Numbered from the stretch's first letter, positions 1,427 to 16,510 are shown. The stretch: DNA of 32,000 nucleotides from Pseudoalteromonas translucida KMM 520 (GCF_001465295.1 NZ_CP011034.1:1800001-1832000); one strand, 5' to 3'. A program made the numbers and translations. Notes: generated from the sequence alone by a model not told the origin.

Positions 1427-1610
1427 TTCATTGACCCCCTCTGAAATAATTTTACGAACAAGGAGCTTATGAATAAACTTATCAATCTAAGAGCAAACAC
1501 ATGACTTCCAAATAATCCCCTGCCCAAACTATAAATATTCTAGAGGTTAGGCTATCTGATATCAAATTCCACAAGCTTATTTTGAGTAAGGTCGTGCAGT
1601 ATTCGAAAAT

Positions 1611-1680
1611 ATTTAGGCACTGTTAATTATTTTATGCCTATCTTTTTATGTGCCTTTTATGCCTGCCCCTTTATTTGTCC
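1611..1680 (+). repeat. Copy 1 of an intergenic repeat family (GGCACTGTTAATTATTTTATGCC..CCCTTTATTTGTC)
   Basis: Shares GGCACTGTTAATTATTTTATGCCT and a CCCTTTATTTGTC tail with the copies at 4694-4766 and 5698-5746. The internal TTATGCC-like submotif is reiterated. Confidence 0.7.
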
Positions 1681-1780
1681 TTATATAAAACTAGATAATG
1701 CTCTATTAGCTACCTAATTACCCTTTCTAAGATTTTTTCCTAGCTATTACCATGTATAATAATTTTAAAGGGAGATATAA

Positions 1781-2410
1781 ATGCACATTGGTATCATAGA
1801 AGATCATCAACTAGTAAGAGATAGCTTTAAAAAGCTACTTGAATTACAGCCAGATTGGAAAGTAATAATAGAAGCTTGCAGCGTAAATGAAGCAAAGCTT
1901 GCGGTTGAACTAGAACAACCCGATATATTTATAGTGGATATATCGCTTAACGGTAAAGAAACTGGGCTTACTTTTTTATCTTACCTTAGTGAGTATTTTC
2001 CTAACATTAAAACCATTGTTGCCTCCATGCATGACCACGAACCCTATGTGAGTAACGCTTTGCGACTTGGCGCGTTAGGTTATGTGTCGAAACGATCGGC
2101 TTCTGAAGAATTAATAGATGCGGTTAAGTCTGTAGCTTTGGGTAAGCGCTATATAAGCGAAGACGTAAACTTTGCCCTAACCACAGAAAGTAGCGCACTT
2201 ACGCTACTAACAAATCGAGAAATAGAAGCCTTACCATTATTTTCTAAGGGGCTTAATGCCAAGCAAGTAGCACAAGCATTAGGAATAATGCCTAAAACTG
2301 CTCATGTCCATAAGGCAAATATATACACTAAGCTTAACGTTACAACTTCATTCGAGCTGTTAAAAATTGCAATAAATGTAGGAGTAATACAACTAGATGA
2401 GCTTACTTAG
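1781..2410 (+). CDS. LuxR/NarL(FixJ)-family two-component response regulator
   Basis: N-terminal receiver domain (DIFIVDISL phospho-acceptor region) and C-terminal LuxR HTH (LTNREIEALPLFSKGLNAKQVAQALGIMPKTAHVHKANIYTKLNV). Overlaps the downstream kinase gene by 14 nt. Confidence 0.9.
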   Translation: MHIGIIEDHQLVRDSFKKLLELQPDWKVIIEACSVNEAKLAVELEQPDIFIVDISLNGKETGLTFLSYLSEYFPNIKTIVASMHDHEPYVSNALRLGALGYVSKRSASEELIDAVKSVALGKRYISEDVNFALTTESSALTLLTNREIEALPLFSKGLNAKQVAQALGIMPKTAHVHKANIYTKLNVTTSFELLKIAINVGVIQLDELT

Positions 2411-3998
2411 CCTATCCCCCTCGTTTAGTTTTTTTATTACCATAGCTTTTAAACAAGTAACCAAGCAGTTACTTGTCGGGCTTGTTTATTTTGTTATATT
2501 TTCTGCAACATTTTGGCTCAGTAAAAATCTAGAAACAGTCCCTGAAAGCAGCGCAATTTTTATTCCTGCGGGTATTAAAATTGCCTTCTTTTTACTTTTA
2601 CCTACAAAGTATTGGCTAACTTTATGGGTAACATCTCGTCTTCTCGCTGCCTTTATAGGTGCTTTTAATAATGAAGTTTTAGCTCTTACACAGTGGGATT
2701 TTAACTTATTTCATGGTTTTTGGCAGGAGTTTTGCTTTGTTGCGCTTATTTATATTTTAAAAAACAGCCGTTGGCCGCCCAGCATTAACGATAGCCAAGG
2801 TATACTTTCGTTAATACTACTGGCTGTTGCTAGTACATCTATTAAATGGTTTTTATTTGCTAGTGCGTTTGAATTTACCAATATACTGGTTGCTACAGAA
2901 TTATTACAGTACCAGTTAAATATGTGCCTTGGGGATATTACCGGCACACTATTAGTCACTCCGCTAATGATGCTAATTTTTAGCGTGAGGCATAAATTAA
3001 ATAAATCACTATTACTAAAAATGATGCATTTAGGGGCTGCTTTATTGTGCCTTTTATTAATTGTAAGTTTTGTATATGCACTACGGCCCGACACCTACCC
3101 GCTACTAAGGCTAGCCTCGTTATTACCCATTATTTGGTTTTCGTATAGGTTTGGCTCTTTGGGCGCTGTAACCAGTGCCACGTTAATTAATAGCTTAATT
3201 ATACTCGAGGCAAGCTTTACTCATGCCCCTGAAAACACTTATATAAGCCAATTATTCATTTTAGCAAATGCAATTACCAGTATGGTTTTAGGCGCTGCAA
3301 TTACTGAACTAAAACGTAAAAATAATGAGTTATATAAAACGAACCAAGAACTCAGAAAGCAGTTAACTAAAAACACACACCTTGCTGCTAAAATGGTTAG
3401 CGTACAAGAAAATGAGCGAAAACATCTTTCTCAAGAGTTACACGACGAGTTGGGTCAAAATCTCACGGCTTTAAAAACTGACTTATCTATTTTGTCTCAC
3501 ATGAGTAATAAAGATACTCAGTCGTTTGTTAAAAGCTTAAAAACGAATGCCAATACCATGTACGATTCGGTATACCAATTAATGCATTACCTTCGCCCAC
3601 GCGAATTAGACGAACTTGGCTTAAATAAGGCAATAACAGCCGGGCGACTAAAAAGTTTACTGCAGAAGGCAAAAATTAATTTTCAGGCCGACTTTAAAAC
3701 TCATAAAGGCCTGTCAAAAGATCATGAAATAGCTATTTATCGAATATGCCAAGAAGCAGTAACTAACTGTGTTAAGCATAGTAATGCCAGCAAAATGCAT
3801 ATAGAACTCGTAACCGATAATAATTTTATTACACTGACCATTAGTGATAATGGCAGTTTAGCAACACCTGCTAACAACTCGGGTAATTATGGTTTAGCTT
3901 TTATTGAAGAGCGCGCAATGGCATTGGGCGGAACTTTTGAAGTGTGTGTAAAAAATGGCTTTACCATTAAGGTAAAGCTTCCTTTTTACTTTGATTAG
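2397..3998 (+). CDS. Sensor histidine kinase, HisKA_3/HATPase_c (NarX/UhpB class) with a large polytopic N-terminal membrane domain (MASE1-like)
   Basis: About 300 aa of repeated hydrophobic helices, then a coiled coil. H-box ERKHLSQELHDELGQNLTAL, N-box QEAVTNCVKHSNAS, G-boxes SDNG / GNYGLAFIEERA. Confidence 0.85.
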   Translation: MSLLSLSPSFSFFITIAFKQVTKQLLVGLVYFVIFSATFWLSKNLETVPESSAIFIPAGIKIAFFLLLPTKYWLTLWVTSRLLAAFIGAFNNEVLALTQWDFNLFHGFWQEFCFVALIYILKNSRWPPSINDSQGILSLILLAVASTSIKWFLFASAFEFTNILVATELLQYQLNMCLGDITGTLLVTPLMMLIFSVRHKLNKSLLLKMMHLGAALLCLLLIVSFVYALRPDTYPLLRLASLLPIIWFSYRFGSLGAVTSATLINSLIILEASFTHAPENTYISQLFILANAITSMVLGAAITELKRKNNELYKTNQELRKQLTKNTHLAAKMVSVQENERKHLSQELHDELGQNLTALKTDLSILSHMSNKDTQSFVKSLKTNANTMYDSVYQLMHYLRPRELDELGLNKAITAGRLKSLLQKAKINFQADFKTHKGLSKDHEIAIYRICQEAVTNCVKHSNASKMHIELVTDNNFITLTISDNGSLATPANNSGNYGLAFIEERAMALGGTFEVCVKNGFTIKVKLPFYFD

Positions 3999-4042
3999 TT
4001 AGTACATTGCTTAGTTAATATATTGCTTAATTAGTAAATTGC
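3995..4042. repeat. Three tandem 16 bp repeats (TTARTTARTANATTGC) filling the gap between two convergent genes
   Basis: ttagttagtacattgc / ttagttaatatattgc / ttaattagtaaattgc, then a partial ttagc. The array overlaps the stop codons of both convergent ORFs. Confidence 0.7.
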
Positions 4043-4585
4043 TTAGCAAATAAAAACTTGTTTAGTATAAAACTTTTGCCTTAATTGGCCTGCTTCTATA
4101 TGTTCGGGATTAACTTGTATTTCAGCTTGGTTACCTATTAGCTGCAGTAGCATACCTTGTGCTATTTGGCTGTTGCCAAGCCTTGACTTTACCACCACCT
4201 GCTTGCCTATAGCACCTTGTAATCGTGGCTTTGGCAAACTAGGTTTGCTAATTGGTTTTAACCCTTCCGACTTTGCAAATAAGTTTACGCAGTGCTGCTT
4301 AGCCGCAACTATCAAATCGTCTTTACCTTTAACCACGTCAACATTATTTAATAAATGGATAAATGCTTGATTAGCTCTATCAAACTCGGTACACACATCA
4401 GTTAAGCCCCGTATAGCTGCCCATTTACGAATGACTATGTATTTACCCTTTTTAATACGCGCTAAACTAATTGAGGCACCTGTCATTTTGCTATACCACT
4501 CAATACGATAGCAAAATGAGCCTAGGCTATGTAAAAACACCGTTATATTGCCAAATTCCTTTGTGCTTGCTTCAATTAAACTCAT
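4043..4585 (-). CDS. Hypothetical protein, 180 aa, no recognisable domain
   Basis: Long uninterrupted ORF with no signal peptide or TM helix. I recognise no motif. Confidence 0.5.
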   Translation of the reverse strand: MSLIEASTKEFGNITVFLHSLGSFCYRIEWYSKMTGASISLARIKKGKYIVIRKWAAIRGLTDVCTEFDRANQAFIHLLNNVDVVKGKDDLIVAAKQHCVNLFAKSEGLKPISKPSLPKPRLQGAIGKQVVVKSRLGNSQIAQGMLLQLIGNQAEIQVNPEHIEAGQLRQKFYTKQVFIC

Positions 4586-4693
4586 TTTACTTCCCTAACG
4601 TCCTAGTTAAATTGAGTTTATTAGCAAATAGCCTGGTATAAAATCATCCATATTCCTAATCCGCCTAGGAAAATGGCTTAGAAAATACAAGTG

Positions 4694-4766
4694 GATTAAT
4701 TTACGGCACTGTTAATTATTTTATGCCTGTCCCTTTATTTGTCTTGCCTGTCCCTTTATTTGTCTT
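4694..4766 (+). repeat. Copy 2 of the intergenic repeat family, with a perfect 21 bp tandem duplication
   Basis: GATTAATTTACGGCACTGTTAATTATTTTATGCC, followed by tgcctgtccctttatttgtct twice (4724-4744 and 4745-4765). Confidence 0.75.
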
Positions 4767-4816
4767 AAACAACATAATTGTTAGAATGCCCACCTATTTT
4801 CCCATCAAGAGACACA

Positions 4817-5533
4817 ATGGCAAACTTCAATACTCATCTTAATACTGCGCTAATCATCACAGGCTTAGCCTCAGCCACCTTATTATCTGCAGGACATATT
4901 GATTTAAAAGGCGCGCTTTGGTTATGGTTTTTAGGCTCAATCGGCGGTTTATTACCAGACATAGATTCAGATAACTCCACATCACTCGACACTATTTTTA
5001 ATTTATTTGCACTAAGCGCTGTATTACTGGTACTGCATTACATAACCACTGAGCTAATTATTAAAATTAGTTTTATCGAGTTAATTGTAGTGCCCTTATT
5101 AGTTTACGGGTTTATGAAATATATTATTAGACCACTTTTTGAATGGATCACAGTACATAGAGGCAGTTGCCACTCTTTACTATTTATACTGCTATGCGCG
5201 CTATTAACAACACAAGTAACATGGGAACTAAATGATCAATCAACCACACAAGCAGCCACCTTTGCCTGGTTAACGGGTGGGTTTATTTTACTAGGAGGAT
5301 TAATTCATTTATTGCTGGACGAAATTTACAGCGTAGATTTAAGTAATGTAACAATTAAACGCTCTTTCGGAACCGCTCTAAAAATAGCTGACTTCGATAA
5401 TAAATTAATTACGTTGGCGTCGGTTATTGCCATTGCAGGTTTAATTTATGTTGCCCCTCCTACAAAACAAACTATTACAGCGTTAAGTGATTGGTCTCAT
5501 TTTAGATTTCAATCTTTACAAATCAGATTTTAA
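4817..5533 (+). CDS. Membrane-bound metal-dependent hydrolase family protein (YdjM/DUF457-like)
   Basis: MANFNTHLNTALI.. with the LPDIDS motif and multiple TM helices. ATG at 4817 is preferred over the TTG at 4778 used by the ORF track. Confidence 0.6.
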   Translation: MANFNTHLNTALIITGLASATLLSAGHIDLKGALWLWFLGSIGGLLPDIDSDNSTSLDTIFNLFALSAVLLVLHYITTELIIKISFIELIVVPLLVYGFMKYIIRPLFEWITVHRGSCHSLLFILLCALLTTQVTWELNDQSTTQAATFAWLTGGFILLGGLIHLLLDEIYSVDLSNVTIKRSFGTALKIADFDNKLITLASVIAIAGLIYVAPPTKQTITALSDWSHFRFQSLQIRF

Positions 5534-5582
5534 GCCCTAAATACGCATAATGATACGCATAGTGAAATCAAGTGAATAACAT

Positions 5583-5626
5583 TGACACCCACCCTAGTTT
5601 TTTCAAAGTGATCAGCGTGGGTGTCA
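5583..5626 (+). terminator. Large hairpin downstream of the DUF457-like gene (possible terminator)
   Basis: TGACACCCAC ... GTGGGTGTCA 10 bp perfect stem, about 24 nt loop, T-rich tail. The loop is long for a classical terminator. Confidence 0.3.
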
Positions 5627-5697
5627 TCATGATTTTATTCTTTGTGTTTGTTTCAATTAAACTCATTCCACCTCGGAAAATAGTTTATAAAATACCA

Positions 5698-5746
5698 GGA
5701 TTTAATTTACGGCACTGTTGCTTATTTTATGCCTGTCCTTTTATTT
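5698..5746 (+). repeat. Copy 3 of the intergenic repeat family, truncated where it abuts an IS fragment
   Basis: GATTTAATTTACGGCACTGTTGCTTATTTTATGCCTGTCCTTTTATTTT, then an abrupt switch into IS110-derived sequence at 5747. Confidence 0.7.
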
Positions 5747-5923
5747 TCATCAGATCATTAGCATTTAAGTGGATAAGAATACTATTTAGGTGCTGGAAAA
5801 CACATACGCCCTACGATGAATCAACTTACTTAATCGCATTGAAAAGTAAGGGATCACCGCTGTTAAAATTTGCGGTGGAAAGTGAGCTTTAGTGCTTGCT
5901 GTCCACCTCAGGGCGTGTTGTTA
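5747..5923 (+). pseudogene. Remnant of an IS110-family element: last 146 nt of the transposase gene plus the right end
   Basis: 177 bp identical to 13885-14061 except one synonymous difference (g5886 vs a14024). Encodes ..IRSLAFKWIRILFRCWKTHTPYDESTYLIALKSKGSPLLKFAVESEL. ORF 5572..5892 is a chimera of this fragment with unrelated sequence. Confidence 0.9.
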
Positions 5924-5930
5924 TGTGCAT

Positions 5931-8279
5931 TTACAGTTCGTCATATACAATATTAATGACTTGTTCAGCTAGTGCTCTTGTGTTTTCAAGCGCGTCATCG
6001 CCAATTTCGTGCATAGGTGTGTTTAAAGTATCTCGAATCGCACTCAAGCGAGCTTCAAGTTCAGCAGTGATATAGCCGTTGTCCCTTAAAGCAGCAGTGC
6101 AAACTGACAGGTCTGATTTCGCTTCACCAAGATCAATGAGCTGTTTCTTAAAACGATGACGAATTTCTCCCTCAAAGAAAGGTCGCAAGGTTGTGAGAAT
6201 GTCGTTATTAGTTTCACGATTAACAAAAGCTTTAATTCTGTCAAAAGCAACATCATGCTCTGTAGCCATCATGTCATCAATTTCAACGGCTTCTATCGAG
6301 CAAGTTTCAGCACCATGAACTAATTTTACCGATTTAGCGCACCGCCTGAATTTCTTCACAGCTTTTGCTGCCATTCCTTTATAGTGAGTCGTTAGTACAA
6401 TTTGTTTAATAGTCCGTTGCAGCTCATCCAGTTTATTGAGAATCAGTGCTATTCGCTCATTGTCAAAACTAGTAACAGGATCATCTAGCACTAAAATAGC
6501 CTTAGCTTTCTCCTCTGCTGGAAGAGACATCACCTTAGCTAAAAATATACAAAGTGCTAGCGCTCTGCGGTCTGACTCACTAAATACTGTATTAATTTTA
6601 TCAGCAGAAATGTCCTCACCTTTAAACTTAACACGAAGGTCATAGATAACTTGTCTGCCGCGATTATTAGGTACTTTGATAATCTCAAAGTTACTTGAGC
6701 CAAGCTGACGAAACAGTCCATTTATCAAATCAAAGTAAGTATCTAAATACGCTGTTTGTGATTGTTCGAGCTGCTGCTTTTGTGCTTTATAAGTAGTATC
6801 TATCCCATTAACAGTTGCTAGCTTCTGCCTGTACTGAACACAAAGTGGCTCTAATGCTATCCGCTTTAGCGCCAAATTAGCTTGTGTTTGTTGTTGTGTG
6901 ATTTCTGTCAATTGATGATTCAGATCCACTTCATTAAGTGAGCCTTTATAAGCATTGAAGATAGCGTTAATTTGCTCTGCGACTACCCAATAGTCATAGA
7001 TAGCTTGATTATACGTTGTTGCTGCTGTATTCAGTACATCGAAGGAAACGAGTTGAGCAGGTTCGTAGGGCGTAGTAAACTTTTGCTCTAATCTCGGTAT
7101 CCAGAATTCCGTTGCTTGCTGGCTATTTGCAATAACGGCATCAAAAGAAGCGAGAATAACCTCATGCTTTTGTTCCAATGAAGCAGTTAAAGGCGCTAGA
7201 GCTTGATTGGTTATAATTTGAGGCTCCACATACAGCTCAAACACTTGTTTATTGGCTTGGTGTAGCTGAATAAGGTTTTCACGAGTATTTGGAATACTAA
7301 ATGGCTGACGAAGGCCATTTAAAGTTTGTCTTGTTTCTTTGTTAAATCTATCAAACTCAGCATTAAAAGCTTGCTGGTACGCAGCGATTAGGCCTTGAGC
7401 ATCAGCACTTAAAGCCTGCCCACAGAAAGGACAATCATCTTTTATTTGTGCGATACCTTGGCTAGCCCAACCTTTAAAAGTAGCTGAGTTGTTCACATGA
7501 TTGCTCATGTGATTTTGCAGTGACACCAATGAATCTTGATGAACATTTTGAAGGCTAGATGCTAGTACAGCATTAATTGAATCAATTGCTTGGGCAAAGT
7601 TGACCTGTGCACCAACCGCACTTAGAACATTACGATGTTTGATTTTTTCAATATTCTGAATGGTAGTTGTGACTTGCAGTTTTGATGCTTCATGTGCCGC
7701 CACGTTAGTTTCTAACTGTTCTTTAGTCTCTGAAGGCAAAGCAGAGTTAACATACGCAGGAACACTACCCACAGCGTGAGTTGTAAATTGCCCTTCAATA
7801 CCAGAAAGAAGTCTTTTTTCATCACGAAGATTGTTATTCATCTCAGCTAAAGCCGCAAACAAGGCGGTGTTACTCTCACCAAGAATAAAACTAGTCATGT
7901 TTTCAGAGTTTGGCCGCTCTTGCTTCTGACCAGTGATTACATTTCTATGTATAAAGCTTTGGTCAAAAACATACAAACCTGAACAATCAGGAGTTTTTAC
8001 TTGCCACTGGCCGTTTTCGAATTTAGATGTAACATTACCTGTCGCAGTACCGAACATGAATTCAACTTTAGGTGGTTTAGTTGGGTCATTTGGTATGCTT
8101 TTTCGGTGCATTATAAAATCAGGAGCATCTTCTGCTAGTGAATGAATAATATCACAGAGGGTACTCTTACCATTTCTGTTCTCACCATATATAACGGTCA
8201 CATCACCAAGATCTATTCCACCTGCAACGGTTTTGGTGAAATTTCCAATACCTTGTATTAGCTTTATTTTTTTTAACAT
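5931..8279 (-). CDS. rloC: RloC/PrrC-like ABC-type ATPase (AAA_13 family) with coiled-coil zinc hook and C-terminal putative anticodon-nuclease region
   Basis: Walker A GENRNGKST. Long Q/L-rich coiled-coil insert containing CPFCGQ (CxxC, nt 7422-7433). Signature-like FSESDRRAL, Walker B ILVLDDPVTSFD, H-loop LTTHY. C-terminal LRPFFEGEIRHRF ... LNTPMHE resembles the R-x3-E...H arrangement of PrrC/RloC ACNase domains. Confidence 0.6.
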   Translation of the reverse strand: MLKKIKLIQGIGNFTKTVAGGIDLGDVTVIYGENRNGKSTLCDIIHSLAEDAPDFIMHRKSIPNDPTKPPKVEFMFGTATGNVTSKFENGQWQVKTPDCSGLYVFDQSFIHRNVITGQKQERPNSENMTSFILGESNTALFAALAEMNNNLRDEKRLLSGIEGQFTTHAVGSVPAYVNSALPSETKEQLETNVAAHEASKLQVTTTIQNIEKIKHRNVLSAVGAQVNFAQAIDSINAVLASSLQNVHQDSLVSLQNHMSNHVNNSATFKGWASQGIAQIKDDCPFCGQALSADAQGLIAAYQQAFNAEFDRFNKETRQTLNGLRQPFSIPNTRENLIQLHQANKQVFELYVEPQIITNQALAPLTASLEQKHEVILASFDAVIANSQQATEFWIPRLEQKFTTPYEPAQLVSFDVLNTAATTYNQAIYDYWVVAEQINAIFNAYKGSLNEVDLNHQLTEITQQQTQANLALKRIALEPLCVQYRQKLATVNGIDTTYKAQKQQLEQSQTAYLDTYFDLINGLFRQLGSSNFEIIKVPNNRGRQVIYDLRVKFKGEDISADKINTVFSESDRRALALCIFLAKVMSLPAEEKAKAILVLDDPVTSFDNERIALILNKLDELQRTIKQIVLTTHYKGMAAKAVKKFRRCAKSVKLVHGAETCSIEAVEIDDMMATEHDVAFDRIKAFVNRETNNDILTTLRPFFEGEIRHRFKKQLIDLGEAKSDLSVCTAALRDNGYITAELEARLSAIRDTLNTPMHEIGDDALENTRALAEQVINIVYDEL

Positions 8280-8380
8280 CTAACACTTATCCTTAAGCCA
8301 TCAATGTAAACTTATTGATAGATAGACCAGTTAATTTATTTTAATCTGACCGAATTTACTGTGAGCGCGAAGTAGCGAAA

Positions 8381-8432
8381 GCACATAACGCCGCGTTCAC
8401 CGGCTTGTCCGGTGCAACGCTTTGTTAGGGGC
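8381..8432 (-). other. attC recombination site (short type) ending the Thoeris cassette
   Basis: Minus strand reads GCCCCTAAC-AAA-GCGTTGCACCGG-ACAAG-CCGGTGAACGC-GGC-GTTATGTGC. TAAC/GTTA cores flank an 11-12 bp stem with one extra base in the 5' arm, and there is no T tract. The inverse core GCCCCTAAC is complementary to the cassette start GTTAGGGGG at 9883-9891. Confidence 0.6.
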
Positions 8433-8434
8433 AT

Positions 8435-9271
8435 TTAAACCCCATTCCTTGCTGATTTAATGTCGAGAAGATTTATCTGTTTTATCTTGTCCTTATGAAT
8501 GACAATTGTAAGCCTTGCTGGATACTTGAATCGCATTTCACTAATACGAAACGTCCACAACATTATTTTCAACAGGTCTTCATCGCTAATAGTTTTGTGT
8601 CCCTTTATTCGAGTTATACCCGATCCAAATATGGGAGTCGACACACTCTCCTGTGCGTATACGTTATTTACCTTGTCCCAAAAATTTATTAGAAACTCAA
8701 GGTATTCAGGCATCGTAATTTCCGCCTTATTGCTTTCATCGAATTTTGTAAATGCAGTTAATAGATAGCTTTTGTAAACACAAACAGTCCCTATCTGATG
8801 ACGAACTTTCTTCCCTGATTTTCTCTCGATGTTGCTTTCAAGTATTTCGCTAGTTTCAAAAGCATAATCACCAATGTAGCGATCTAGCTCTGATACAGAT
8901 ACGTCAAGATGATTTTTGATAAATATGCCATTTAGCGAACTCTCTGCGATTATTTTATTATCTACTAAGGTATCAAAATATTCGTTAAAGGCGATTGCCT
9001 TTAATCCCGGTTCTAAGAAAATATCACCGACTTTTATCGTTACTTCACTTCCTTCAATGTCAATTTCAATTTTATTTAGATTGTTAGACCATACCCAAAT
9101 CATCAAATAGATTACTAATAATGCACCTATAAAAATCCATCCATAAGTGGTTTTGCATTCTTCTGGTATACCAACAAACAGAACAACCAATGACAAAGTC
9201 GCGCTTATCCCTGAGGTGATTTTTAAAAAGTTATCAATCACCCTCCTGTCAAACAGACTAACCTTACTCAT
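8435..9271 (-). CDS. thsA: Thoeris type II effector-like protein ThsA: two N-terminal TM helices plus a C-terminal Macro-like domain
   Basis: TM helices ITSGISATLSLVVLFVGIP and GWIFIGALLVIYLMIWVWS. The soluble domain begins VTIKVGDIFLEPGLKAIAFNEYFDT, reminiscent of the macro-domain GDIT..AIVNAAN strand-loop. Lies immediately downstream of a TIR-like gene in the same unit. Confidence 0.6.
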   Translation of the reverse strand: MSKVSLFDRRVIDNFLKITSGISATLSLVVLFVGIPEECKTTYGWIFIGALLVIYLMIWVWSNNLNKIEIDIEGSEVTIKVGDIFLEPGLKAIAFNEYFDTLVDNKIIAESSLNGIFIKNHLDVSVSELDRYIGDYAFETSEILESNIERKSGKKVRHQIGTVCVYKSYLLTAFTKFDESNKAEITMPEYLEFLINFWDKVNNVYAQESVSTPIFGSGITRIKGHKTISDEDLLKIMLWTFRISEMRFKYPARLTIVIHKDKIKQINLLDIKSARNGV

Positions 9272-9354
9272 AGTTTATACCAATATAAACCCGCTGCCCT
9301 CTTCGTCGCCAACATGAAGTCACTATCCTTTAAGGCTGCCTCTATGATTGCTTT

Positions 9355-9831
9355 TTACATTGGAATATGAAGAGTAGGAACCTTGTACATCGAATCTCTG
9401 AAGATAGGTAATTTGTTCCACAGGTTTTTTACTGACTGCTTCAACGATCCATTCAGCAGAAGACTTTCTTTCGAGTCATAATCTGGATAAATAACAATAA
9501 CAGGAAGTCCTTGATCGTTGATGCCATAATCAATCTCTTCTCGTAGTGCTCTTGAGCTAACTGTATTAGAGCTTAAAAATAATACAATATTTTTTGAGCT
9601 TCTAAGGCGTTCTCTCAGTCGTGGTTTCAACGTGGTTTCCCAAGCGCTATTGTCACGGACGTTATATGTCTTGCCATGTGAATCATTAAAAGGAAATGAT
9701 GCGTCCTTCCCTTTCCATGCTCGCAACATGTTGTAGTAGCAAAAATCTTTTGTAGCATGTGCACCTAGTGCGCTTGCGTTAAACGGCTCTGCAACATAAA
9801 AGGCTGCGTAATTTCCATTTCGATATGCCAT
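9355..9831 (-). CDS. thsB: TIR-like domain protein (DUF1863/MTH538 TIR-like), Thoeris ThsB
   Basis: 158 aa. NGNYAAFYV.. start, FPFNDSH...VRDNSAWETTLKPRLRERLRSSKNIVLFLSSNTVSSRALREEIDYG is the typical TIR-like (PF08937-type) pattern. GGAGG RBS 4 nt upstream of the ATG. Confidence 0.7.
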   Translation of the reverse strand: MAYRNGNYAAFYVAEPFNASALGAHATKDFCYYNMLRAWKGKDASFPFNDSHGKTYNVRDNSAWETTLKPRLRERLRSSKNIVLFLSSNTVSSRALREEIDYGINDQGLPVIVIYPDYDSKESLLLNGSLKQSVKNLWNKLPIFRDSMYKVPTLHIPM

Positions 9832-9882
9832 ATTTCCTCCACGTAATTAAGAATTTTGATAAATGCCTAGTTTGACTGCTGG

Positions 9883-9990
9883 CCCCCTAACGCTTAAATA
9901 ACAGGCTAAGTAATGGTTGGCTAAAATTGTGTAGCGAAGCGAAACGTAGCCAACTGTTACGTGTCCTTGTTTATTTTCTTGTTAGCTTAC
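9883..9990 (-). other. attC recombination site (about 108 bp) ending the HEPN cassette
   Basis: Minus strand reads GTAAGCTAAC-AAGAAAATAAACAAGGACACGTAACAGTTGGCTA...TAGCCAACCATTACTTAGCCTGTTATTTAAGC-GTTAGGGGG. It is a long imperfect palindrome with extra bases in the 5' arm. The HEPN gene stop codon lies inside the inverse core. It shares CTAACGC, AATGGTTGGCTA, GCCAACTGTT and GTTAGC blocks with the site at 12436-12523. Confidence 0.75.
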
Positions 9991-10569
9991 ATTTGTGTAT
10001 TGAGGTCTACCAATTAAATCAATGTCTATATCTTTTAGCATTGCTCCATTAGTCCATATTAATTCTAGTTGTCGAGCCGCCTCTTTATATCGGGCAGCGC
10101 TATCAATATCAGAATATGCAGCTATTTTCATGTCAGGAAATAACCTAGGAAGTTTATCATTAGGAGTATCATGTGGAACTTCATGAGTAGCTGTCGTTTT
10201 ATGAGGTTTTGCATGAGCTAACCAATTCCGGAATTTGATCATTTCTTGTATAGTCTGCCAAGGCTGTGCTGAAAAATCAGCATCAACTCCTAATTCTTTG
10301 GAAACAAGAATGATTTTTCCAATTATGGAAGTAGACTCAAAATTCTTCCACTGACTTTTAAATAGCTGTGACCCATAGACATTCGCAGTAGCTTCTACGG
10401 AAAAAACAGAAAAAATCATTGATGGAATTATCCATCTAAATTTATGGCCTGGTTCTTCTTTTTCCGCCATATTGAACTGGTTACTTGCAATAGATTGAAG
10501 CGGTATTATTTCAGGGCACTCAACAGTTATTTTTACTTTTTTGGTACGACTCAAAGGTAAACTCTCCAT
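9982..10569 (-). CDS. Stand-alone HEPN-domain protein (predicted RNase), 195 aa
   Basis: Rx4H motif R114-N-W-L-A-H119 (nt 10213-10230) within a predicted helical protein. An upstream helix ..FSVFSVEATANVYG.. is typical of HEPN helix 1. Met34 is an alternative start. Confidence 0.55.
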   Translation of the reverse strand: MESLPLSRTKKVKITVECPEIIPLQSIASNQFNMAEKEEPGHKFRWIIPSMIFSVFSVEATANVYGSQLFKSQWKNFESTSIIGKIILVSKELGVDADFSAQPWQTIQEMIKFRNWLAHAKPHKTTATHEVPHDTPNDKLPRLFPDMKIAAYSDIDSAARYKEAARQLELIWTNGAMLKDIDIDLIGRPQYTNVS

Positions 10570-10580
10570 GTAAGCTAACG

Positions 10581-12435
10581 AGCCTGTAGATTAACTCGTT
10601 TTTTTATTTGTTTTTATTGATAAACAAACCATAGCTGAGTTCCTATTTTGGTTCAATCGATTACTTATTTTATGCAGAATATAAAGTGGGAGTTTGATGT
10701 TGTTTTAATTGGCATTTTGGAAGCTATTACTGGTGTTTAAGTGGCTTTATTTTAGGTTAAAAGGGCTTCCCCTTCCTAATGCATCGTGTTTTGCAGCTTT
10801 TCTATATTATGAACAAGGCAATACAGTTGCCATTGTGCATTCACTTTCATTTGACCCCGTAAGGTCAACTTATTCATGCCTTTATTCACTGTAATGTTGC
10901 CAAACACCGGTTCAATACAACCAAGTCGTTTACTGTATTGTCGTCGACCTATCGGGCTGTCTATTTTTACTTTCATTTTGTCTACATAGCTCAGCTTTTT
11001 GCGTGATTCATTATTGATAAACTGCACTTGTCGCCCTGTTTTAATCGGCGGCTTTCGCATGCATTGTTGCTGTAGCGGACACGTTTTACAGTCTTTTAAG
11101 TAACCGCAGAACCGGGTGTATTTTTGGTTATGGCTGTTTACATTTATACCGCTTCGCCACATGGCATTGCCTGCGGGGCAGCGGCATGTTTGGGTTGCTT
11201 CATCATAATGAAAATCATCTGAGGTAAATAGTCGTGGTTTGCCTTTACTGCGTTTTAGTCTGCGCTTTTCTTGCTCCGTTTCGTATGTTTCGCTGGCTTT
11301 AAACAGCGGGTTTCTTTTTCTAAATTGGTTATCCGCAATGTAGGTATCGAACCCGCTTTTCGCCATAAATTCAAGATTCACTTCGCTGTTAAACCCACTG
11401 TCTGCAGTGAATTTAATGGTGGGTTCATCTGCCCGTTTTTCTGTATTGAGTTTAGCAAGCTGCTGTTTTAATTGTGCAATGGCTGGCTGTAAGGTTTGTT
11501 GTTCACCCACTGAACCCCACGCTTGAGCTTGCAAGATAATTTGGTGTTTATCGTCATTTATCGCGATGCCGTTGTAGCCTTGAATTGTGCCTTTTGAGGT
11601 GGTCATTTTCGCGCTGTCGGGGTCGGTGATATTACTTTTAACTGGCTTGCCTTTACTGCCTGTTTTTTCTTTGTGAGTGGCTAAGAACTCGGTGATTTTG
11701 TCTGCACTTTTATCCAGCTTTTCTTTTTGTTTTAAGTCCTGAGTTATCAACTCTTCGCCCAGTTCATCTTGTGATTGGTGGCGCTCAATAATACGTTTGC
11801 TTGCGCGTTCTAGTTTTGCTTTTTTGCGACCTAACTCATCGAATGTGCCGCTCCACTCTTTACTCGCATTGGACTTTAATTTACATCCATCAATGGCAAA
11901 CATATTGCGGCCTATCAAGCCTTCCTCATCACATATCATCAGTACTTGCGTAAAAAGCGGCTCAATCTGTTCATGCATTTTAGCCACAAAACCCGCTATA
12001 GATGTGTAATGCGGCTGGATATCCCCCGATACACTCATAAATAAAATATTATTCTCGCAAGCCTTTGCAATCCGACGGCTACTAATTAATCCATGTGCAT
12101 AACCCAGTAAAATAATCTTTAACATCACCGATGGCGGATACGCCGCCGCGCCCGTTTTGTCGTTGTTATACCACGCATCAAAGCCCGATAAATCGAGCTT
12201 GTTTTCGACAATATAACAAAGAGCATATTCAAATGTGCCAGGCAAAATTTGCTCAGCAAAATTGATAGGAATGAATTTATTTTGACAGGACAAGTCAGGC
12301 TTGTAGTTGGCCATAACGATTTACCGTGGGTGAATAATATCTATTAGATCACAGCGAACGGATGGGTTCAAGGTTAAAAAGCAATCAATTCGAAATAGTA
12401 AGATACGTTCCTAAAAAGAGTAATTCTACAGCCTC
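10581..12435 (-). mobile_element. IS1182-family insertion sequence (about 1.85 kb) inserted in the GTTA core of an attC site
   Basis: Terminal inverted repeats (G)AGCCTGTAGATTAACTCGTTTTT (left) vs GAGGCTGTAGAATTACTCTTTTT (reverse complement of the right end). Flanked by direct repeat AAC(G) at 10577-10580 and 12436-12439. Removing it restores CTAACGCCTTGCTAAGCGG.., which parallels the attC at 9883-9990. Confidence 0.8.
10776..12314 (-). CDS. IS1182-family DDE transposase
   Basis: 512 aa. N-terminal ..AYPPSVMLKIILLGYAHGLISSRRIAKACENNILFMSVSG.. (the transposase InsH/DUF772-like signature of IS1182/IS5-type enzymes). C-terminal Cys-rich region and DDE region. Confidence 0.85.
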   Translation of the reverse strand: MANYKPDLSCQNKFIPINFAEQILPGTFEYALCYIVENKLDLSGFDAWYNNDKTGAAAYPPSVMLKIILLGYAHGLISSRRIAKACENNILFMSVSGDIQPHYTSIAGFVAKMHEQIEPLFTQVLMICDEEGLIGRNMFAIDGCKLKSNASKEWSGTFDELGRKKAKLERASKRIIERHQSQDELGEELITQDLKQKEKLDKSADKITEFLATHKEKTGSKGKPVKSNITDPDSAKMTTSKGTIQGYNGIAINDDKHQIILQAQAWGSVGEQQTLQPAIAQLKQQLAKLNTEKRADEPTIKFTADSGFNSEVNLEFMAKSGFDTYIADNQFRKRNPLFKASETYETEQEKRRLKRSKGKPRLFTSDDFHYDEATQTCRCPAGNAMWRSGINVNSHNQKYTRFCGYLKDCKTCPLQQQCMRKPPIKTGRQVQFINNESRKKLSYVDKMKVKIDSPIGRRQYSKRLGCIEPVFGNITVNKGMNKLTLRGQMKVNAQWQLYCLVHNIEKLQNTMH

Positions 12436-12523
12436 AACGCCTTGCTAAGCGGATAAAAATGGTTGGCTATAATCGCGCAGCGATGGCCAACTGTTTTTAT
12501 TCCGTTTAAGCAACTTATAGTTA
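12436..12523 (-). other. Body of the attC site of the protease cassette, separated from both of its core sites by IS insertions
   Basis: Imperfect palindrome CTAACGCCTTGCTAAGCGGATAAAAATGGTTGGC...GCCAACTGTTTTTATTCCGTTTAAGCAACTTATAGTTA. Its GTTA core end is at 10571-10580 across the IS1182. Its inverse core (GAGTGCTAAC, 14058-14067) lies across the IS110 element. Confidence 0.7.
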
Positions 12524-12761
12524 CTCCGTTCCATTAATTAATGTATTTACCTATCTCATTAATACATGGAATATGCTTCTGTTGATCACGAATATTTGAG
12601 CGGAAACAATCAATGTTTGTAACAAGACTTTCGGATCAACAGGAGTAATTTGTTTCAATACGCATACTCAGGGATTGTCGTAATGCCGACTATCTATAAG
12701 ACTTGCGAGAAACACTATTAGCCTCTATTTATTCTTTCACTTTACCTCTAGGAGGCCCAAA
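12524..12761 (+). ncRNA. Candidate IS110 bridge (seeker) RNA encoded in the left non-coding end
   Basis: 238 nt non-coding leader upstream of the recombinase gene. Hairpin CCATTAATTAATG/CATTAATACATGG (12531-12569). CTCAGGGATTGTCGTAA (12667-12683) resembles the element right end CTCAGGGCGTGTTGTTA (14045-14061). CTATAAG (12694-12700) is the reverse complement of the target flank CTTATAG (12514-12520). There is no direct evidence of transcription. Confidence 0.35.
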
Positions 12762-14030
12762 ATGGAAGCCTTTAACGTCTCAGGTTTTGCTGCCCTTATC
12801 GGGATCGATTGGGCCGACCGTAAACATGATATTTGTGAAATAAACCGCGACACAAACACACAACATTTAAGTGTGATTTCCTCTGAACCTAAGTCAATTA
12901 ATGCATGGGCGCTTGAGTTAAAACAACGCTACAACGGCAGACCCGTTGCTGTCGCGTGTGAGCTAAAAAAAGGTCCACTTATATATGCACTCAGTAAATT
13001 TAAGCACATTATATTATTTGTGATTAACCCATCAAGTGTCGCCAAATACCGTGCAGCATTTTCGCACAGCGGGGCTAAAGATGATCCTACTGATGCGATT
13101 ATTCAAGTTGAAATTCTACAACTTCACATGGATAAATTAACGGTTATTAGACCTGACACAGAAGAAGTTAGGTGCCTTGCACAGCTTGTCGAATACAGAC
13201 GTAAATTAGTACAAGATCGTGTTAATTTAACCAATAAAATAGCCACAACGCTAAAAAATTATTACCCCCACGTGATTGATTGGTTTAAAGAAAAGGACAC
13301 TCAAATATTCTGTGACTTTTTACTGCGTTGGCCATCTCTTACTCACGCTAAAAAAGCGAGAAAGCAAACACTACTCGACTTCTTTAATCAACATAACTCC
13401 CGCTACCCACTCGTTAATGAAAAGCGGATAAAAGAAATAAAGGATGCTGAAATTCTCACCGATGATATGGCCGTGATCACGCCAAACTTATTGCTTATTG
13501 AATGCCTCGTTCCTCAACTCAAACATCTAATGCAGGCAATAACCCGATTTGATAACGAAATTAAAACGCTTTATAAGCAACATTCAGATCGCGCTATTTT
13601 TGATAGTTTACCAGGTGCAGGACCACAATTAGCGCCTCGGTTATTAGCCGCTATGGGGTCAAATCGTGACCGTTATAAGTGCGCTGCTGACATACAAAAA
13701 TACGCAGGCATTGCCCCTGTTACCGAGCGCAGTGGCAAGAAGGAATGGATACACTGGCGATATTCGTGCACTAAATTTTTAAGGCAAACATTTGTTGAAT
13801 GGGCAGGATTATCTGTGCGTTATTCATTTTGGGCAAAAGCATATTATCGGCAGCAAGAGGCCAAAGGAAAACCCCATAATACCATCATCAGATCATTAGC
13901 ATTTAAGTGGATAAGAATACTATTTAGGTGCTGGAAAACACATACGCCCTACGATGAATCAACTTACTTAATCGCATTGAAAAGTAAGGGATCACCGCTG
14001 TTAAAATTTGCGGTGGAAAGTGAACTTTAG
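12762..14030 (+). CDS. IS110-family DEDD transposase/recombinase
   Basis: 422 aa. N-terminal RuvC-like DEDD domain (ALIGIDWADRKHDICE). C-terminal Transposase_20 region (LPGAGPQLAPRLLAAMG ... YAGIAPVTERSGKK). GGAGG RBS upstream. Confidence 0.9.
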   Translation: MEAFNVSGFAALIGIDWADRKHDICEINRDTNTQHLSVISSEPKSINAWALELKQRYNGRPVAVACELKKGPLIYALSKFKHIILFVINPSSVAKYRAAFSHSGAKDDPTDAIIQVEILQLHMDKLTVIRPDTEEVRCLAQLVEYRRKLVQDRVNLTNKIATTLKNYYPHVIDWFKEKDTQIFCDFLLRWPSLTHAKKARKQTLLDFFNQHNSRYPLVNEKRIKEIKDAEILTDDMAVITPNLLLIECLVPQLKHLMQAITRFDNEIKTLYKQHSDRAIFDSLPGAGPQLAPRLLAAMGSNRDRYKCAADIQKYAGIAPVTERSGKKEWIHWRYSCTKFLRQTFVEWAGLSVRYSFWAKAYYRQQEAKGKPHNTIIRSLAFKWIRILFRCWKTHTPYDESTYLIALKSKGSPLLKFAVESEL

Positions 14031-14058
14031 TGCTTGCTGTCCACCTCAGGGCGTGTTG

Positions 14059-14751
14059 TTAGCACTCTTCAATTTCACGAATAAACTTAATAAGATCTTT
14101 AGCGGAATGCGCTAAACCCAATTCAACTATGCGATAAATACTCTCAGCAAATTTATCTCCGTTATCTTCAACATCTGTAAAGGAATGAACTTCTATCGAT
14201 GATTCATGATTACTGAATAACATTCCAGCTAGCTTACCTGTTTGCTCGCTAACCAAAGGACTACCGCTAAAGCCCTTTAAGGAAGGGAAAGATAATTCTG
14301 TAGTTGTATGAGCTAATGGGTGGTTAGATGTCTCCGAGTTACTAACTACATATCCTTTTAGCATTCGTGCATTAATATTAACAACCTTATTTTTTTGCCC
14401 AATATTATTAAAGCCAAAAGCTCTTACATCATGACCTGGTAAGTACTCTGTGTCATTAAGTTCAAAACACTTGTAGCTTTGGTGTTTGATAAAGTTTCCA
14501 ATGGCAAAATCATATTTAGGATGTGATTTTATGTTGTAGATAACATCAATGTCACCACTAATTAAATTTTTACCAAGTAGAACCTCGCCTTCTTGAACCA
14601 TTTCAATTATATGCCTACACGTTGCAATTTTCCCTTCGTTACCGATGAAAAAAGCAACACCAGCATAGCGGTCTATATCAAAATGAAGAGTACTCCCTTC
14701 ATGTCTTCTTTTAGCGATGAGTAATGTGATTTGATATTCGCCGTAGTTCAT
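14059..14751 (-). CDS. Cytoplasmic trypsin-fold (S1-like) serine protease, 230 aa
   Basis: Catalytic triad in canonical order: H47 (IATCRHII), D81 (KYDFAIG), S162 (LKGFSGSPL). No signal peptide. GGAG RBS 7 nt upstream. The stop codon lies inside the attC inverse core TGCTAAC. Confidence 0.65.
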   Translation of the reverse strand: MNYGEYQITLLIAKRRHEGSTLHFDIDRYAGVAFFIGNEGKIATCRHIIEMVQEGEVLLGKNLISGDIDVIYNIKSHPKYDFAIGNFIKHQSYKCFELNDTEYLPGHDVRAFGFNNIGQKNKVVNINARMLKGYVVSNSETSNHPLAHTTTELSFPSLKGFSGSPLVSEQTGKLAGMLFSNHESSIEVHSFTDVEDNGDKFAESIYRIVELGLAHSAKDLIKFIREIEEC

Positions 14752-14760
14752 TAATACTCC

Positions 14761-14876
14761 AGAGTGCTAACAGCTTATTGAACACCACTTTGGGAGGTTA
14801 TAACACCCCAAAACGGCGCATATTACATTGCTCGATAACCAAACCAAACAACTTACTTATAAACAAGTAGTTACAA
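14761..14876 (-). other. attC-like region upstream of the protease cassette; GTTA core certain, outer boundary uncertain
   Basis: Minus strand ..AAGCTGTTAGCACTCT: the GTTAGCACTCT core is the exact reverse complement of the inverse core at 14058-14068. Upstream there are imperfect palindromes (TTGGGGTGTTATAACCTCCCAA) and a possible inverse core TTGTAAC at 14870-14876. Confidence 0.4.
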
Positions 14877-15016
14877 TTGCTATTTTGTAACCTTTGTTAT
14901 TTAACCCCAAAACGACTTTTAATAATGTTATGGGACAAAACCTACAACACTGTATTTATACACAGTGTCAAATTAAATCTATTTTTTATAAAAACGCATC
15001 TGCAATTATCACTTAT

Positions 15017-15628
15017 TTAAAACCTTGAATCATTTTCACAAGGTATCCCGTCGTTATCGCCATCCATTTTTGTATTCGGGCAATTATTTATAAAAAATAC
15101 AGCTTCGGCTCGTGAGGTCATTTGGCTGCAGTGTTGTCTGCCATCGCAGCTAAAGTTTTGTGTGTTTTTAGGAGTAACTATCTTCGGATATTTTTCAGCA
15201 AAGGTGGTTAAGTCGGCATTGGTAATAACGGGGGTGTTGTTTTTATTGCCTGCATGAGTGTTTGCGAAGTACCTATTGTATGCGCTAAAACCTATGCTTA
15301 ATATAATTACCAGCGCAACAAGGTTAGCTAAAGTGCTCGACTTCTTTTTTGCTTTACTCATTTTAAAAGGTGTATTAAAAGCAGCTGTTTTTTCTAGTTT
15401 GCTTTCTACTTTACTTGCGATTACGCCTTCAATACGGCAATTTACGGCTTTGCTTTTACCATTGGGATCGGTGGCAACCTCAAAATAGATGGTGTCGCCT
15501 ACTTTGGGTTTGCGGCTCATGTGTTTAAGCGAAGATATGTGTATAAAGGTGTCGTGTGCAACGCTGCTAGATTTAATAAAGCCATAGCCTCGGTTGTCGT
15601 TCCACGACATTAACAATCCTTTGTTCAT
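15017..15628 (-). CDS. Cold-shock-domain / TM / Excalibur calcium-binding domain protein
   Basis: N-terminal CSD-like WNDNRGYGFIKS...FIHISSL...GDTIYFEV. Central TM helix LANLVALVIILSIGFSAY. C-terminal Excalibur motif CPNTKMDGDNDGIPCE. Confidence 0.7.
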   Translation of the reverse strand: MNKGLLMSWNDNRGYGFIKSSSVAHDTFIHISSLKHMSRKPKVGDTIYFEVATDPNGKSKAVNCRIEGVIASKVESKLEKTAAFNTPFKMSKAKKKSSTLANLVALVIILSIGFSAYNRYFANTHAGNKNNTPVITNADLTTFAEKYPKIVTPKNTQNFSCDGRQHCSQMTSRAEAVFFINNCPNTKMDGDNDGIPCENDSRF

Positions 15629-15913
15629 TGGTGTTCCTGATTTTTATACTTTTTATTAGTTATTTGTTTTTTATTTGTTACTTATGCAAACTATACGTTT
15701 CTAAAAGTGTTCGGTAAACTTATTTTAAGTTATTTTAAAATTAAACTACTTATAGCCATTAGCTTAGCGGTATTTTAACTAACTATTGAATAGTGATTGA
15801 ATAACGAATGAATTACATAGGGTGGTTTTAATTTGCGGTGCTGTTGATTATGATGGCGCTAGAAACACTTAATAAGTCAGTTGTGCTTTAAATTTTTTAG
15901 TAAGGATCATCTT

Positions 15914-16441
15914 ATGTCTAGCTATAACGAATCTCCAGAGCAAGTTACTAAAGCAACCGAAGGTTATGTAATGCAGCAAACTATGTTGCGAATTAAAGAT
16001 CCAAAACCGTCATTAGCATTTTATGAAAACGTATTAGGTATGAAGTTGTTGGGCAAGTACGACTTTCCTGGTATGAAGTTTACCCTGTACTTTTTAGGTT
16101 ACGAGCAACAACTGCCTGAGGGCGATGATAAAACCAAAGCTGAATGGGTGTTTCGCCGCCCTGCACTAATTGAGCTTACCCATAACTGGGGCACAGAAAA
16201 AGACGATAGCTTTGCAGGCTATGTAAGTGGTAACGAAGAGCCAAAAGGCTTTGGCCATATTGGTATTAGCGTGCCCGATGTATACGCCGCGTGCGAACGT
16301 TTTGCAAAATACGATGTAGAGTTTGTAAAAAAACCAGACGATGGCTCGATGAAAGGTTTGGCGTTTATTAAAGACCCCGACGGTTATTGGATTGAAATAC
16401 TCTCGGCCGAGGGCATTACCGAAATTATTATGTCTCAGTAA
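15914..16441 (+). CDS. gloA: Lactoylglutathione lyase (glyoxalase I)
   Basis: Long-type glyoxalase I: [62 protein letters not shown] at 15914 is preferred over the upstream TTG. Confidence 0.9.
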
Positions 16442-16469
16442 TAACTAGGTCTTATATATTTAAAATTAT

Positions 16470-16497
16470 AAAGCCAGCAGCTAAGCTGGCTTTACTG
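16470..16497 (+). terminator. Rho-independent terminator after gloA
   Basis: AAAGCCAGC-agctaa-GCTGGCTTT stem-loop followed by a T-rich stretch. Confidence 0.7.
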
Positions 16498-16510
16498 TTT
16501 GCAGGCGTTG

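Follow-up and report, generated by a model that had tools for sequence, protein, structure and literature searches.

The DNA analysed here is the 32,000-nucleotide stretch NZ_CP011034.1:1800001-1832000 of Pseudoalteromonas translucida KMM 520 (GCF_001465295.1), referred to below as the window. At positions 5747-14970 it very probably carries the remnant of a chromosomal integron, in which the attachment site attI and the LexA-box promoter of the integrase gene intI appear to have been kept, intI itself to have been deleted and four minus-strand gene cassettes to have stayed in place. Counted from attI, the cassettes, all on the minus strand, encode an S1 protease, a HEPN-like protein, a type II Thoeris system (ThsB and ThsA) and a PDC-S06 protein. 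A preliminary description of this DNA had read the region as a bare cluster of attC sites without an integrase (CALIN). The attC and cassette part of that reading is borne out by a covariance model built from sites outside the window, by arrays of related sites beside IntI genes and by the recurrence of the protease cassette elsewhere, while the bare cluster gives way to an integron from which intI seems to have been deleted, since attI and a putatively LexA-controlled promoter are retained at 14768-14970.

In integrons, the tyrosine recombinase IntI binds the folded bottom strand of the attC hairpin, with its R boxes (RYYYAAC and G/TTRRRY), L boxes, unpaired spacer and extrahelical bases, and exchanges strands at G/TT (the slash marks the crossover); recombination between two attC sites excises a cassette, and recombination with attI inserts one. 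A cassette that once was circular should therefore end in an inverse core which is the reverse complement of its own first bases, and this was found for all four units: the PDC-S06 unit (5920-5928 against 8381-8389, 9/9), the Thoeris unit (8424-8432 against 9883-9891, 8/9), the HEPN-like unit (9981-9992 against 10568-10579, 12/12) and the protease unit (14058-14068 against 14761-14771, 11/11 and one further base). These matches are exactly as the preliminary description had given them. Past the common GTTA anchor the extensions agree at 5/5, 4/5, 8/8 and 7/7 positions, with a joint probability of about 1e-14 under uniform base frequencies. Several other features that it had pointed out also hold. 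The stop codons of the HEPN-like gene (9982-9984) and the protease gene (14059-14061) lie inside the inverse core within ..CTAAC, the two long sites (9885-9987 and 12436-12516) have blocks in common, such as AATGGTTGGCTA and GCCAACTGTT, and no T tract follows the stems. The extra unpaired bases are confined to one arm, which is the 3' arm on the plus strand of the window and thus the 5' arm in cassette orientation. The far boundary proposed for the site at 12436-12523 was misplaced: its GTTA, at 12521, is formed by the left end of an insertion sequence (IS), and the true inverse core lies beyond this IS, at 14058-14064.

For an independent view of these palindromes, a covariance model (R1) was built from 26 aligned attC sites, all from outside the window, and the window was searched with the filters switched off. 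It turned out that R1 finds all three sites at which the preliminary description had predicted matches (see the table). All three lie on the plus strand, which is the bottom strand of the minus-strand cassettes, as the integron model demands; scores in the rest of the window, on either strand, are all below 14 bits, and nothing besides the three sites falls below E = 0.004. Of the 30 pairs in the R1 consensus, 13 show compensatory changes; the proportion of paired cells is 96.5%, compared with 30-55% when the partners are slid, and the covariation score was reached by 0 of 500 shuffles. In the RNAalifold consensus of the same 26 members, five pairs form the R box (TAAC/GTTA), the spacers are unpaired, the L stem is long and bulges are confined to the 3' arm. 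Folded as bottom-strand single-stranded DNA, the short site 8383-8430 reaches -16 kcal/mol (z = -3.6) and the site at 12436-12516 has z = -4.9. The attC of the textbook dfrA1 cassette on an Aliivibrio salmonicida plasmid scores 38 bits, indicating that R1 is not blind to canonical attC sites, and short attC sites with scores like that of 8383-8430 also occur on the Tara Oceans scaffold L131. Two further candidate attC sites, at 14771-14876 and 10580-10700, were rejected: neither gives a structure or a model match, and these stretches are attI and an IS end, respectively. Rfam, at gathering thresholds, has no match anywhere in the window.

Sites of the same attC families also occur in other genomes. 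A scan of the GTDB genomes with a 17-mer from the 12436 site gave 120 loci, mostly from marine Gammaproteobacteria (Colwellia, Pseudoalteromonas, Shewanella, Psychromonas and Vibrio). Since chance alone would give such a 17-mer about 280 times in 596 Gb, the hit list by itself is no proof, and the evidence is the homology, the arrays and the adjacency to IntI that were found afterwards. Sequences 76-99% identical to the 81-nt stretch 12436-12516 were found in dozens of loci, and repeats 76-97% identical to 9886-9985 recur several times per locus. Conservation of the 12436-type attC ends exactly at YAAC (18 loci) and at GTTA (12 loci with an uninterrupted site), with unrelated flanks on either side. 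Loci L042, L104 and L047 contain arrays of 11-22 co-oriented R1 sites per 8 kb, and at least 10 of the 120 loci encode a homologue of IntI1 (36-53% identity), all 10 on the side and strand predicted by the integron model. For instance, the open reading frame (ORF) in L015, from P. fuliginea, scores 506 bits on the TIGR02249 integron integrase model (cutoff 265).

At the other end of the array, the preliminary description had stated that no attI is present, which proved wrong. The segment 14768-14970 matches the attI and intI-promoter region next to an intact IntI in P. fuliginea (about 80% identical to L015 7114-6916, which separates the first cassette from the start codon of intI) and aligns similarly to L002, from Pseudoalteromonas sp. 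Bsw20308. The homology begins exactly at TAAC 14768-14771, and the first cassettes to the left of it are unrelated in the three genomes, so that attI, as assigned by homology, adjoins the first cassette. Near its other end stands a LexA-box-like palindrome, probably the SOS operator of the lost intI promoter; a similar palindrome is found just upstream of intI in L015, L023, L047, L027, L035, L010 and L007, in most of them as an exact CTGT-N8-ACAG.

That the window holds no integrase, as described before, was confirmed in two ways: a Pfam search of larger ORFs from 185 to 22273 gave no tyrosine recombinase among those tested, and tblastn of all 32 kb, in six frames, with IntI1 and the L015 IntI found no intI or remnant of it. 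The homology to the attI-intI region fades past about 14970, and the 3' end of an unrelated gene, of the cold-shock-domain/Excalibur kind, has been reached by 15017. The retained attI and promoter, together with the lack of any intI remnant, point to an integron whose integrase gene would have been lost by a deletion starting just past its SOS-controlled promoter, with attI and the cassettes staying. With three attC matches and no intI in 32 kb, the locus falls within the definition of a CALIN (at least two attC sites, no integron integrase nearby). As for the components of a full integron, attC sites, cassette structure, attI (by homology) and cassette mobility (for the protease cassette) are found and intI, which would run divergently from the array, is not, so that we speak of a remnant rather than of a complete integron.

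Table. Features of the putative integron remnant in the window (R1, covariance model of attC; strand as in the window)
Feature	Position	Strand	Evidence and remarks
Truncated IS110-type copy (last 173 nt)	5747-5919	+	99% identical to 13885-14057; same ..GTGTT/GTTA junction
Cassette-4 inverse core R''	5920-5928	+	9/9 to 8381-8389; rest of attC lost; IS right end directly adjoining
Cassette 4 ORF, AAA_13 ATPase, 782 aa ("RloC" in the preliminary description)	5931-8279	-	PADLOC PDC-S06, full length, 2.2e-176; Pfam AAA_13 1.3e-25
attC of cassette 3, short, intact	8383-8430	+ (bottom strand)	R1 33.4 bits, E 1.6e-6, + strand only; one bulged C in 3' arm
Cassette 3 gene 2, ThsA	8435-9271	-	Pfam ThsA_Macro 3.2e-62; PADLOC ThsA1, full length, 7e-123
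Cassette 3 gene 1, ThsB (TIR-like)	9355-9831	-	Pfam ThsB_TIR 1.5e-27; PADLOC ThsB1 2.7e-70
attC of cassette 2, intact	9885-9987	+ (bottom strand)	R1 96.5 bits (- strand 20.6 bits); 76-97% identical copies repeat within arrays L042, L104, L066, L111
Cassette 2 ORF, HEPN-like, 195 aa (PTRA_a1986)	9982-10569	-	ATG 10 nt after G/TT; stop inside R''
Second AAC (GTT) copy, duplicated by IS1182 insertion	10577-10579	+	R' crossover preceding cassette 2
IS1182-family IS	10580-12435	-	Transposase 10776-12314; terminal inverted repeats GAGSCTGTAGA...
R1 match, cassette-1 attC	12432-12523	+	72.4 bits
Remainder of cassette-1 attC	12436-12516	+ (bottom strand)	R' triplet AAC, spacer GCCTT, L', variable loop, L'', spacer AACTT
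Next-best R1 matches, reverse strands of two sites	9885-9987 and 12439-12516	-	20.6 and 15.9 bits
IS110-type IS	12517-14057	+	DEDD transposase 12762-14030; Pfam DEDD_Tnp_IS110 and Transposase_20; NCBIfam IS110 RNA-guided transposase
Cassette-1 inverse core R''	14058-14064	+	Severed from remainder of attC by IS110-type element
Cassette 1 ORF, S1/trypsin-like serine protease, 230 aa	14059-14751	-	Pfam Trypsin_2 1.3e-11
attI and intI-attI intergenic region (intI promoter area)	14771-14970	-	Homology to L015, L002
LexA-box-like palindrome CTGTATTTATACACAG	14950-14965		Sole CTGT-N8-ACAG in window

Several observations were made on the attI type and its surroundings. The Aliivibrio salmonicida plasmid pRVS1-224 (locus L255, 3912-11123) has an attI about 80% identical to window 14767-14978 beside an array of six attC sites that includes dfrA1. 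This plasmid is a mobilizable 286-kb plasmid of a fish pathogen, and its IntI is 93% identical to that of P. fuliginea; the same attI type and the related IntI indicate that this integron platform is also plasmid-borne and moves between marine genera. In the chromid of Bsw20308 (L002, 134419-141684), an ISAs1 transposase gene stands after the attI/LexA region (5880-6075) where intI would be expected, the attC of the second cassette harbours the same IS110-type element, and a separate annotated integron integrase is found about 300 kb away on the same replicon; this locus looks like a second integrase-less integron of the same kind. When PLSDB was searched by megablast with 1400-16500, it returned IS elements, one short match of the attI region (the A. 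salmonicida plasmid) and a stray 42-nt match, with no cassette gene matched. The gene that is now next to the deleted intI (15017-15628) encodes a fusion of a cold-shock domain with an Excalibur Ca-binding domain, with weak matches to the PADLOC models CSD_V and retron Se72 effector. Looked up by exact sequence, the protease, ThsB, DUF302 and CSD-Excalibur proteins gave no record.

Without an integrase in cis, the array would be static unless IntI were supplied in trans. The attC of cassette 1 has been broken into three pieces by two ISs, apparently attC-specific, and that of cassette 4 is truncated. The Thoeris cassette alone stands between two intact attC sites (9885-9987 and 8383-8430), which makes it the sole cassette that may still be excisable, and attI might still be able to accept new cassettes. 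A different view is that the locus is a still-active satellite array, all four cassettes of which are shuffled in trans by an IntI encoded elsewhere in the genome, for example on a chromid. Several Pseudoalteromonas chromids do encode an annotated integron integrase (HL-AS1 and Bsw20308, among others), the array L002 of Bsw20308 has the same type of attI region with no IntI homologue in the 7.3 kb fetched, and in the window two attC sites and attI are intact. Against this, the insertions of 1.5 kb and 1.9 kb in the attC of cassette 1 and the truncation of that of cassette 4 leave at most the Thoeris cassette excisable, although insertion at attI would remain feasible, and no IntI of KMM 520 was seen in the searches made. 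Active shuffling of all four cassettes is therefore unlikely in our judgement, though it deserves some weight, and a largely frozen remnant is preferred.

The first of the two ISs belongs to the IS1182 family; its transposase scores 263 bits on the NCBIfam IS1182 model, just under the curated cutoff of 270, and matches Pfam DDE_Tnp_1_6 and DUF772. AAC flanks both of its ends, and deleting the IS together with one AAC restores GCTAAC-GCCTT-GCTAAG, a normal R'-spacer-L' arrangement, so that the HEPN-like cassette directly follows the protease cassette and the unit 10577-12438 is no cassette. There are thus four cassettes; the preliminary description did not recognise that one attC is split by two ISs, and it left the transposase unit unnamed. 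One may also count that unit as a fifth, transposase-carrying cassette, as it starts and ends at AAC/GTT, its ORF is co-directional with the cassettes and the same unit occurs at the same attC position in other genomes. We reject this count, which we consider very improbable, because the unit has terminal inverted repeats of about 18 bp, an IS1182-family DDE transposase and a 3-bp direct duplication, lacks an attC of its own (no R1 match in 10577-10780), is oppositely oriented in a related copy (L079), and leaves a normal attC when excised in silico.

The same IS1182 junctions were found in 9 genome loci and at 86 metagenome ends. The metagenome scan used the terminal repeat of the IS alone, so that the sample was not biased to attC, and gave 136 occurrences: 43 after ..YAAC, 43 after an attC 3' arm ending ..GGCGTT, and 50 others that look like chance. 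All 86 ends flanked by AAC or GTT show the context of an attC crossover, and at least 23 of them overlap the start of an R1 attC match by exactly 3-4 nt, indicating that this lineage inserts specifically at the crossover GTT of attC and duplicates the triplet. Copies of the lineage (terminal repeats GAGSCTGTAGAAT..) were noted, besides that in the window, at L005, L047, L060, L069, L079, L083, L101 and L122 and in the metagenome loci L135-L254. No description of an attC-specific IS1182 lineage was found in the literature searched, which is weak evidence of novelty.

The second IS is of the IS110 type and sits between the unpaired spacer and R'' of the same attC, antisense to the cassettes, with each end ambiguous by 2 nt owing to the core TT. 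Joining 12516 to 14058 rebuilds the uninterrupted sequence ..AAGCAACTT followed directly by GTTA.., as seen in 12 of 18 comparison loci. Copies 93-95% identical occur in Pseudoalteromonas chromids and in L048, and the right-end junction ..GTGTT/GTTA is common to the full copies in L001, L002 and L048 and to both copies in the window, one of which is truncated. Four full copies occupy the same attC position. In every full copy GTTA and the end of an antisense ORF adjoin the right end ..GGGCGTGTT, and at the left end the IS meets the L'' arm of an attC. Of these junctions the truncated copy has kept only the one at the right end, where it borders on the inverse core of the last cassette; this copy marks where the array is broken off distally.

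The non-coding parts of the element are 245 nt long upstream of the transposase gene and 27 nt long downstream, and no inverted repeat of 10 or more matches, subterminal ones included, was found between its ends. Its 5' non-coding region (12517-12761, 245 nt) folds strongly (z = -4.4) and matched no Rfam family. Two loops are conserved even in a 70%-identical copy (L064), TAACAAG being complementary to the target CTTGTTA and CTATAAG to the donor CTTATAG. They may be the guide loops of a candidate bridge/seek RNA programmed for the inverse core of attC.

Fixed attC positions are thus occupied by IS110-type and IS1182-type elements and, in other loci, by group-II-intron-like 5' ends. In L063 and L004, the attC position after ..AAGCAACTT holds a sequence starting GTGTACGCCC..GGGCAT..GAGGTGAAAGTCC, which looks like the 5' end of a group II intron of the group IIC-attC type, and L041 has yet another IS110-like left end there. 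Besides, a different repeat of 45-80 nt with an internal 21-nt tandem TGCCTGTCCCTTTATTTGTC lies beyond the array in three co-oriented copies (1607-1685, 4696-4770 and 5702-5749). Its third copy abuts the truncation point of the partial IS, and two copies are located upstream of the start of ORF 4043-4585 and of a 35-nt fragment of a paralogous start (5640-5674). This repeat is not attC-like and has no match in the fetched loci or in PLSDB.

As for the cassette genes, Pfam and PADLOC agree with the gene content guessed in the preliminary description. Its claim that all are defence genes holds in part: type II Thoeris is secure by homology and is the only defence system that can be assigned with confidence from these matches, while PDC-S06, the HEPN-like protein and the S1 protease are candidates, and an array made entirely of defence genes is plausible. 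ThsA has a hydrophobic N-terminal region, probably membrane-spanning, and a Macro domain, as in the effector of type II Thoeris. PDC-S06 is a computational candidate for a defence gene, and a promoter-like site lies in its cassette at 8365-8338. Phage protection is probably why the cassettes are kept, a role that homology supports for Thoeris and that is inferred for the others.

The HEPN-like protein of 195 aa is 100% identical to PTRA_a1986 of P. translucida KMM 520, which bears the UniRef name RiboL-PSP-HEPN, and has no match in Pfam, PADLOC or NCBIfam. It contains an invariant RNxLAH motif (R114-N115-x3-H119, that is R114-x4-H119 of the Rx4-6H type), and its AlphaFold2 model is helical (pLDDT 87). 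In Foldseek the top PDB folds are HEPN but weak (2hsb with probability 0.97 and E 0.16; all E >= 0.16, TM score 0.39-0.66). Homologues adjoin a serine recombinase on a metagenome scaffold and occur in a small Aeromonas island. Since its ORF starts 10 nt after G/TT, this gene would need transcription from upstream, and attI is now 3.4 kb of IS away. Searches of PHROGs, NCBIfam and PDB sequences gave nothing informative for this protein or for the protease.

The protease has weak PADLOC matches to the protease domains of RT-Protease_XI (retron type XI), PDC-M35A and LmuA (Lamassu), and its cassette starts at G/TT 14771/14770. A protease 92% identical to it (P0017) is encoded on the Tara Oceans scaffold L131 between two intact attC sites (R1 82.9 and 93.7 bits) and among other neighbours. 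When both ISs are removed in silico, the cassette is 84% identical to that in L131 from end to end: the alignment starts at GTTAGCACTCTGG.., covers the ORF and the complete attC and ends at ..GGCGTTAG. The reshuffling at G/TT junctions that the preliminary description had proposed to look for is thus seen in this case, with homology running from the G/TT start to the next G/TT, and by this comparison the protease cassette appears to have moved between arrays.

Three points weigh against the integron reading. R1 is specific to the attC families of the window and, for the two long sites, driven by homology, so that its generality is tested only by the dfrA1 attC and the short attC 8383-8430; in the latter the bulged base is a C where a G is usual; and the fold of 9878-9997 alone is not better than that of shuffles (z = -1.1). 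It could also be argued that the region is an ordinary defence island whose palindromes are terminators, repetitive extragenic palindromic (REP)-like elements or pseudo-attC look-alikes unrelated to integron recombination, given that the genes are defence-like, that the G+C content is below that of the flanks, that a terminator scan gives more hairpins than shuffles and that pseudo-attC sites adjoining defence genes have been described (bioRxiv 10.1101/2024.07.02.601719); yet this can be dismissed as extremely unlikely, because the palindromes are 76-99% identical to repeats arrayed beside bona fide IntI genes, have the R-box, spacer and L-box layout with bulges on one arm only and are accompanied by an attI region, because one cassette recurs in another array with G/TT boundaries, and because the stems lack T tracts, which together with the homologues of the attC family rules out terminators.

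The remnant of an integron in KMM 520 thus offers a dissectable case of how an integrase-less attC cluster may arise, with intI deleted past its SOS-controlled promoter and attI and the cassettes left behind. Two IS lineages that recognise precise attC positions would be natural site-specific, possibly RNA-guided, insertion tools and agents that freeze cassettes, and the IS1182 lineage, if undescribed, would join the IS1111-attC elements and the group IIC-attC introns as a third class of parasite specific to integrons. Short, portable candidate defence genes encode the HEPN-like protein (195 aa) and the S1 protease (230 aa), and both recur in other mobile contexts. A more far-reaching proposal would hold jointly that two distinct attC-specific ISs disabled the array, the IS1182 lineage by inserting at GTT only and the IS110-type element perhaps guided by a bridge/seek RNA, and that the HEPN-like protein and the S1 protease are perhaps new single-gene anti-phage systems; as a whole it is offered tentatively, and we doubt that every part is right.

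Integron cassettes as stores of anti-phage genes, defence cassettes with two genes, CALINs and IS1111-attC elements are all already published, and this kind of element has been well described since 2025. The IS1111-attC group (ISPa21, ISPst6 and ISKpn4; Tetu & Holmes 2008 and Post & Hall 2009, as summarised in PMC3001079 and PMC11187229) follows the rule of a DEDD transposase and an insertion near the 5' end of attC, antisense to the cassettes (PMC3001079). The IS110-type element of the window shares these three traits. Unlike that group, it lacks subterminal inverted repeats and has its long non-coding region upstream, not downstream, of the transposase gene, which is the typical organisation of IS110-type and not of IS1111-type elements (PMC11187229). 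It therefore behaves like an IS1111-attC element with an IS110-type organisation.

Anti-phage integron cassettes (BRiCs) were reported by Kieffer et al. 2025, Darracq et al. 2025 and Getz et al. 2025, as presented in PMC12614218 and bioRxiv 10.1101/2024.07.02.601719, and a two-gene cassette containing ThsB is among those covered there. As in BRiCs, the predicted defence genes of the window are packed as cassettes of one or two genes. The partner of ThsB in the published cassette is not ThsA, whereas the window appears to hold a canonical type II Thoeris pair (ThsB and a transmembrane-Macro ThsA). Unlike the described BRiCs, the present cassettes come from a Pseudoalteromonas host, which extends the recent finding of anti-phage systems stored in integron cassettes to this genus. 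In type II Thoeris in general, a signal produced by the TIR protein is expected to activate ThsA and so to give resistance to phage. Compared with this type (a ThsB TIR sensor and a ThsA Macro/transmembrane effector), both predicted proteins match their models over the full length, and the system is unusual only in being carried as an integron cassette.

Cury and colleagues reportedly defined the CALIN in 2016, in the IntegronFinder classification, as a cluster of attC sites without an integrase. Like sedentary chromosomal integrons and CALINs, the array of KMM 520 has co-oriented cassettes with attC hairpins between them and G/TT as the crossover, and its attC families are common to arrays of these kinds in Colwellia, Shewanella, Vibrio and Pseudoalteromonas. 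Unlike them, it is short, with four cassettes, and its distal end is broken inside an IS. It shares with CALINs the lack of intI, here over 14.7 kb and 17 kb of flanking sequence, and differs from them in that attI and a putatively LexA-regulated intI promoter are still present, so that the route by which the integrase was lost can be read directly from the locus.

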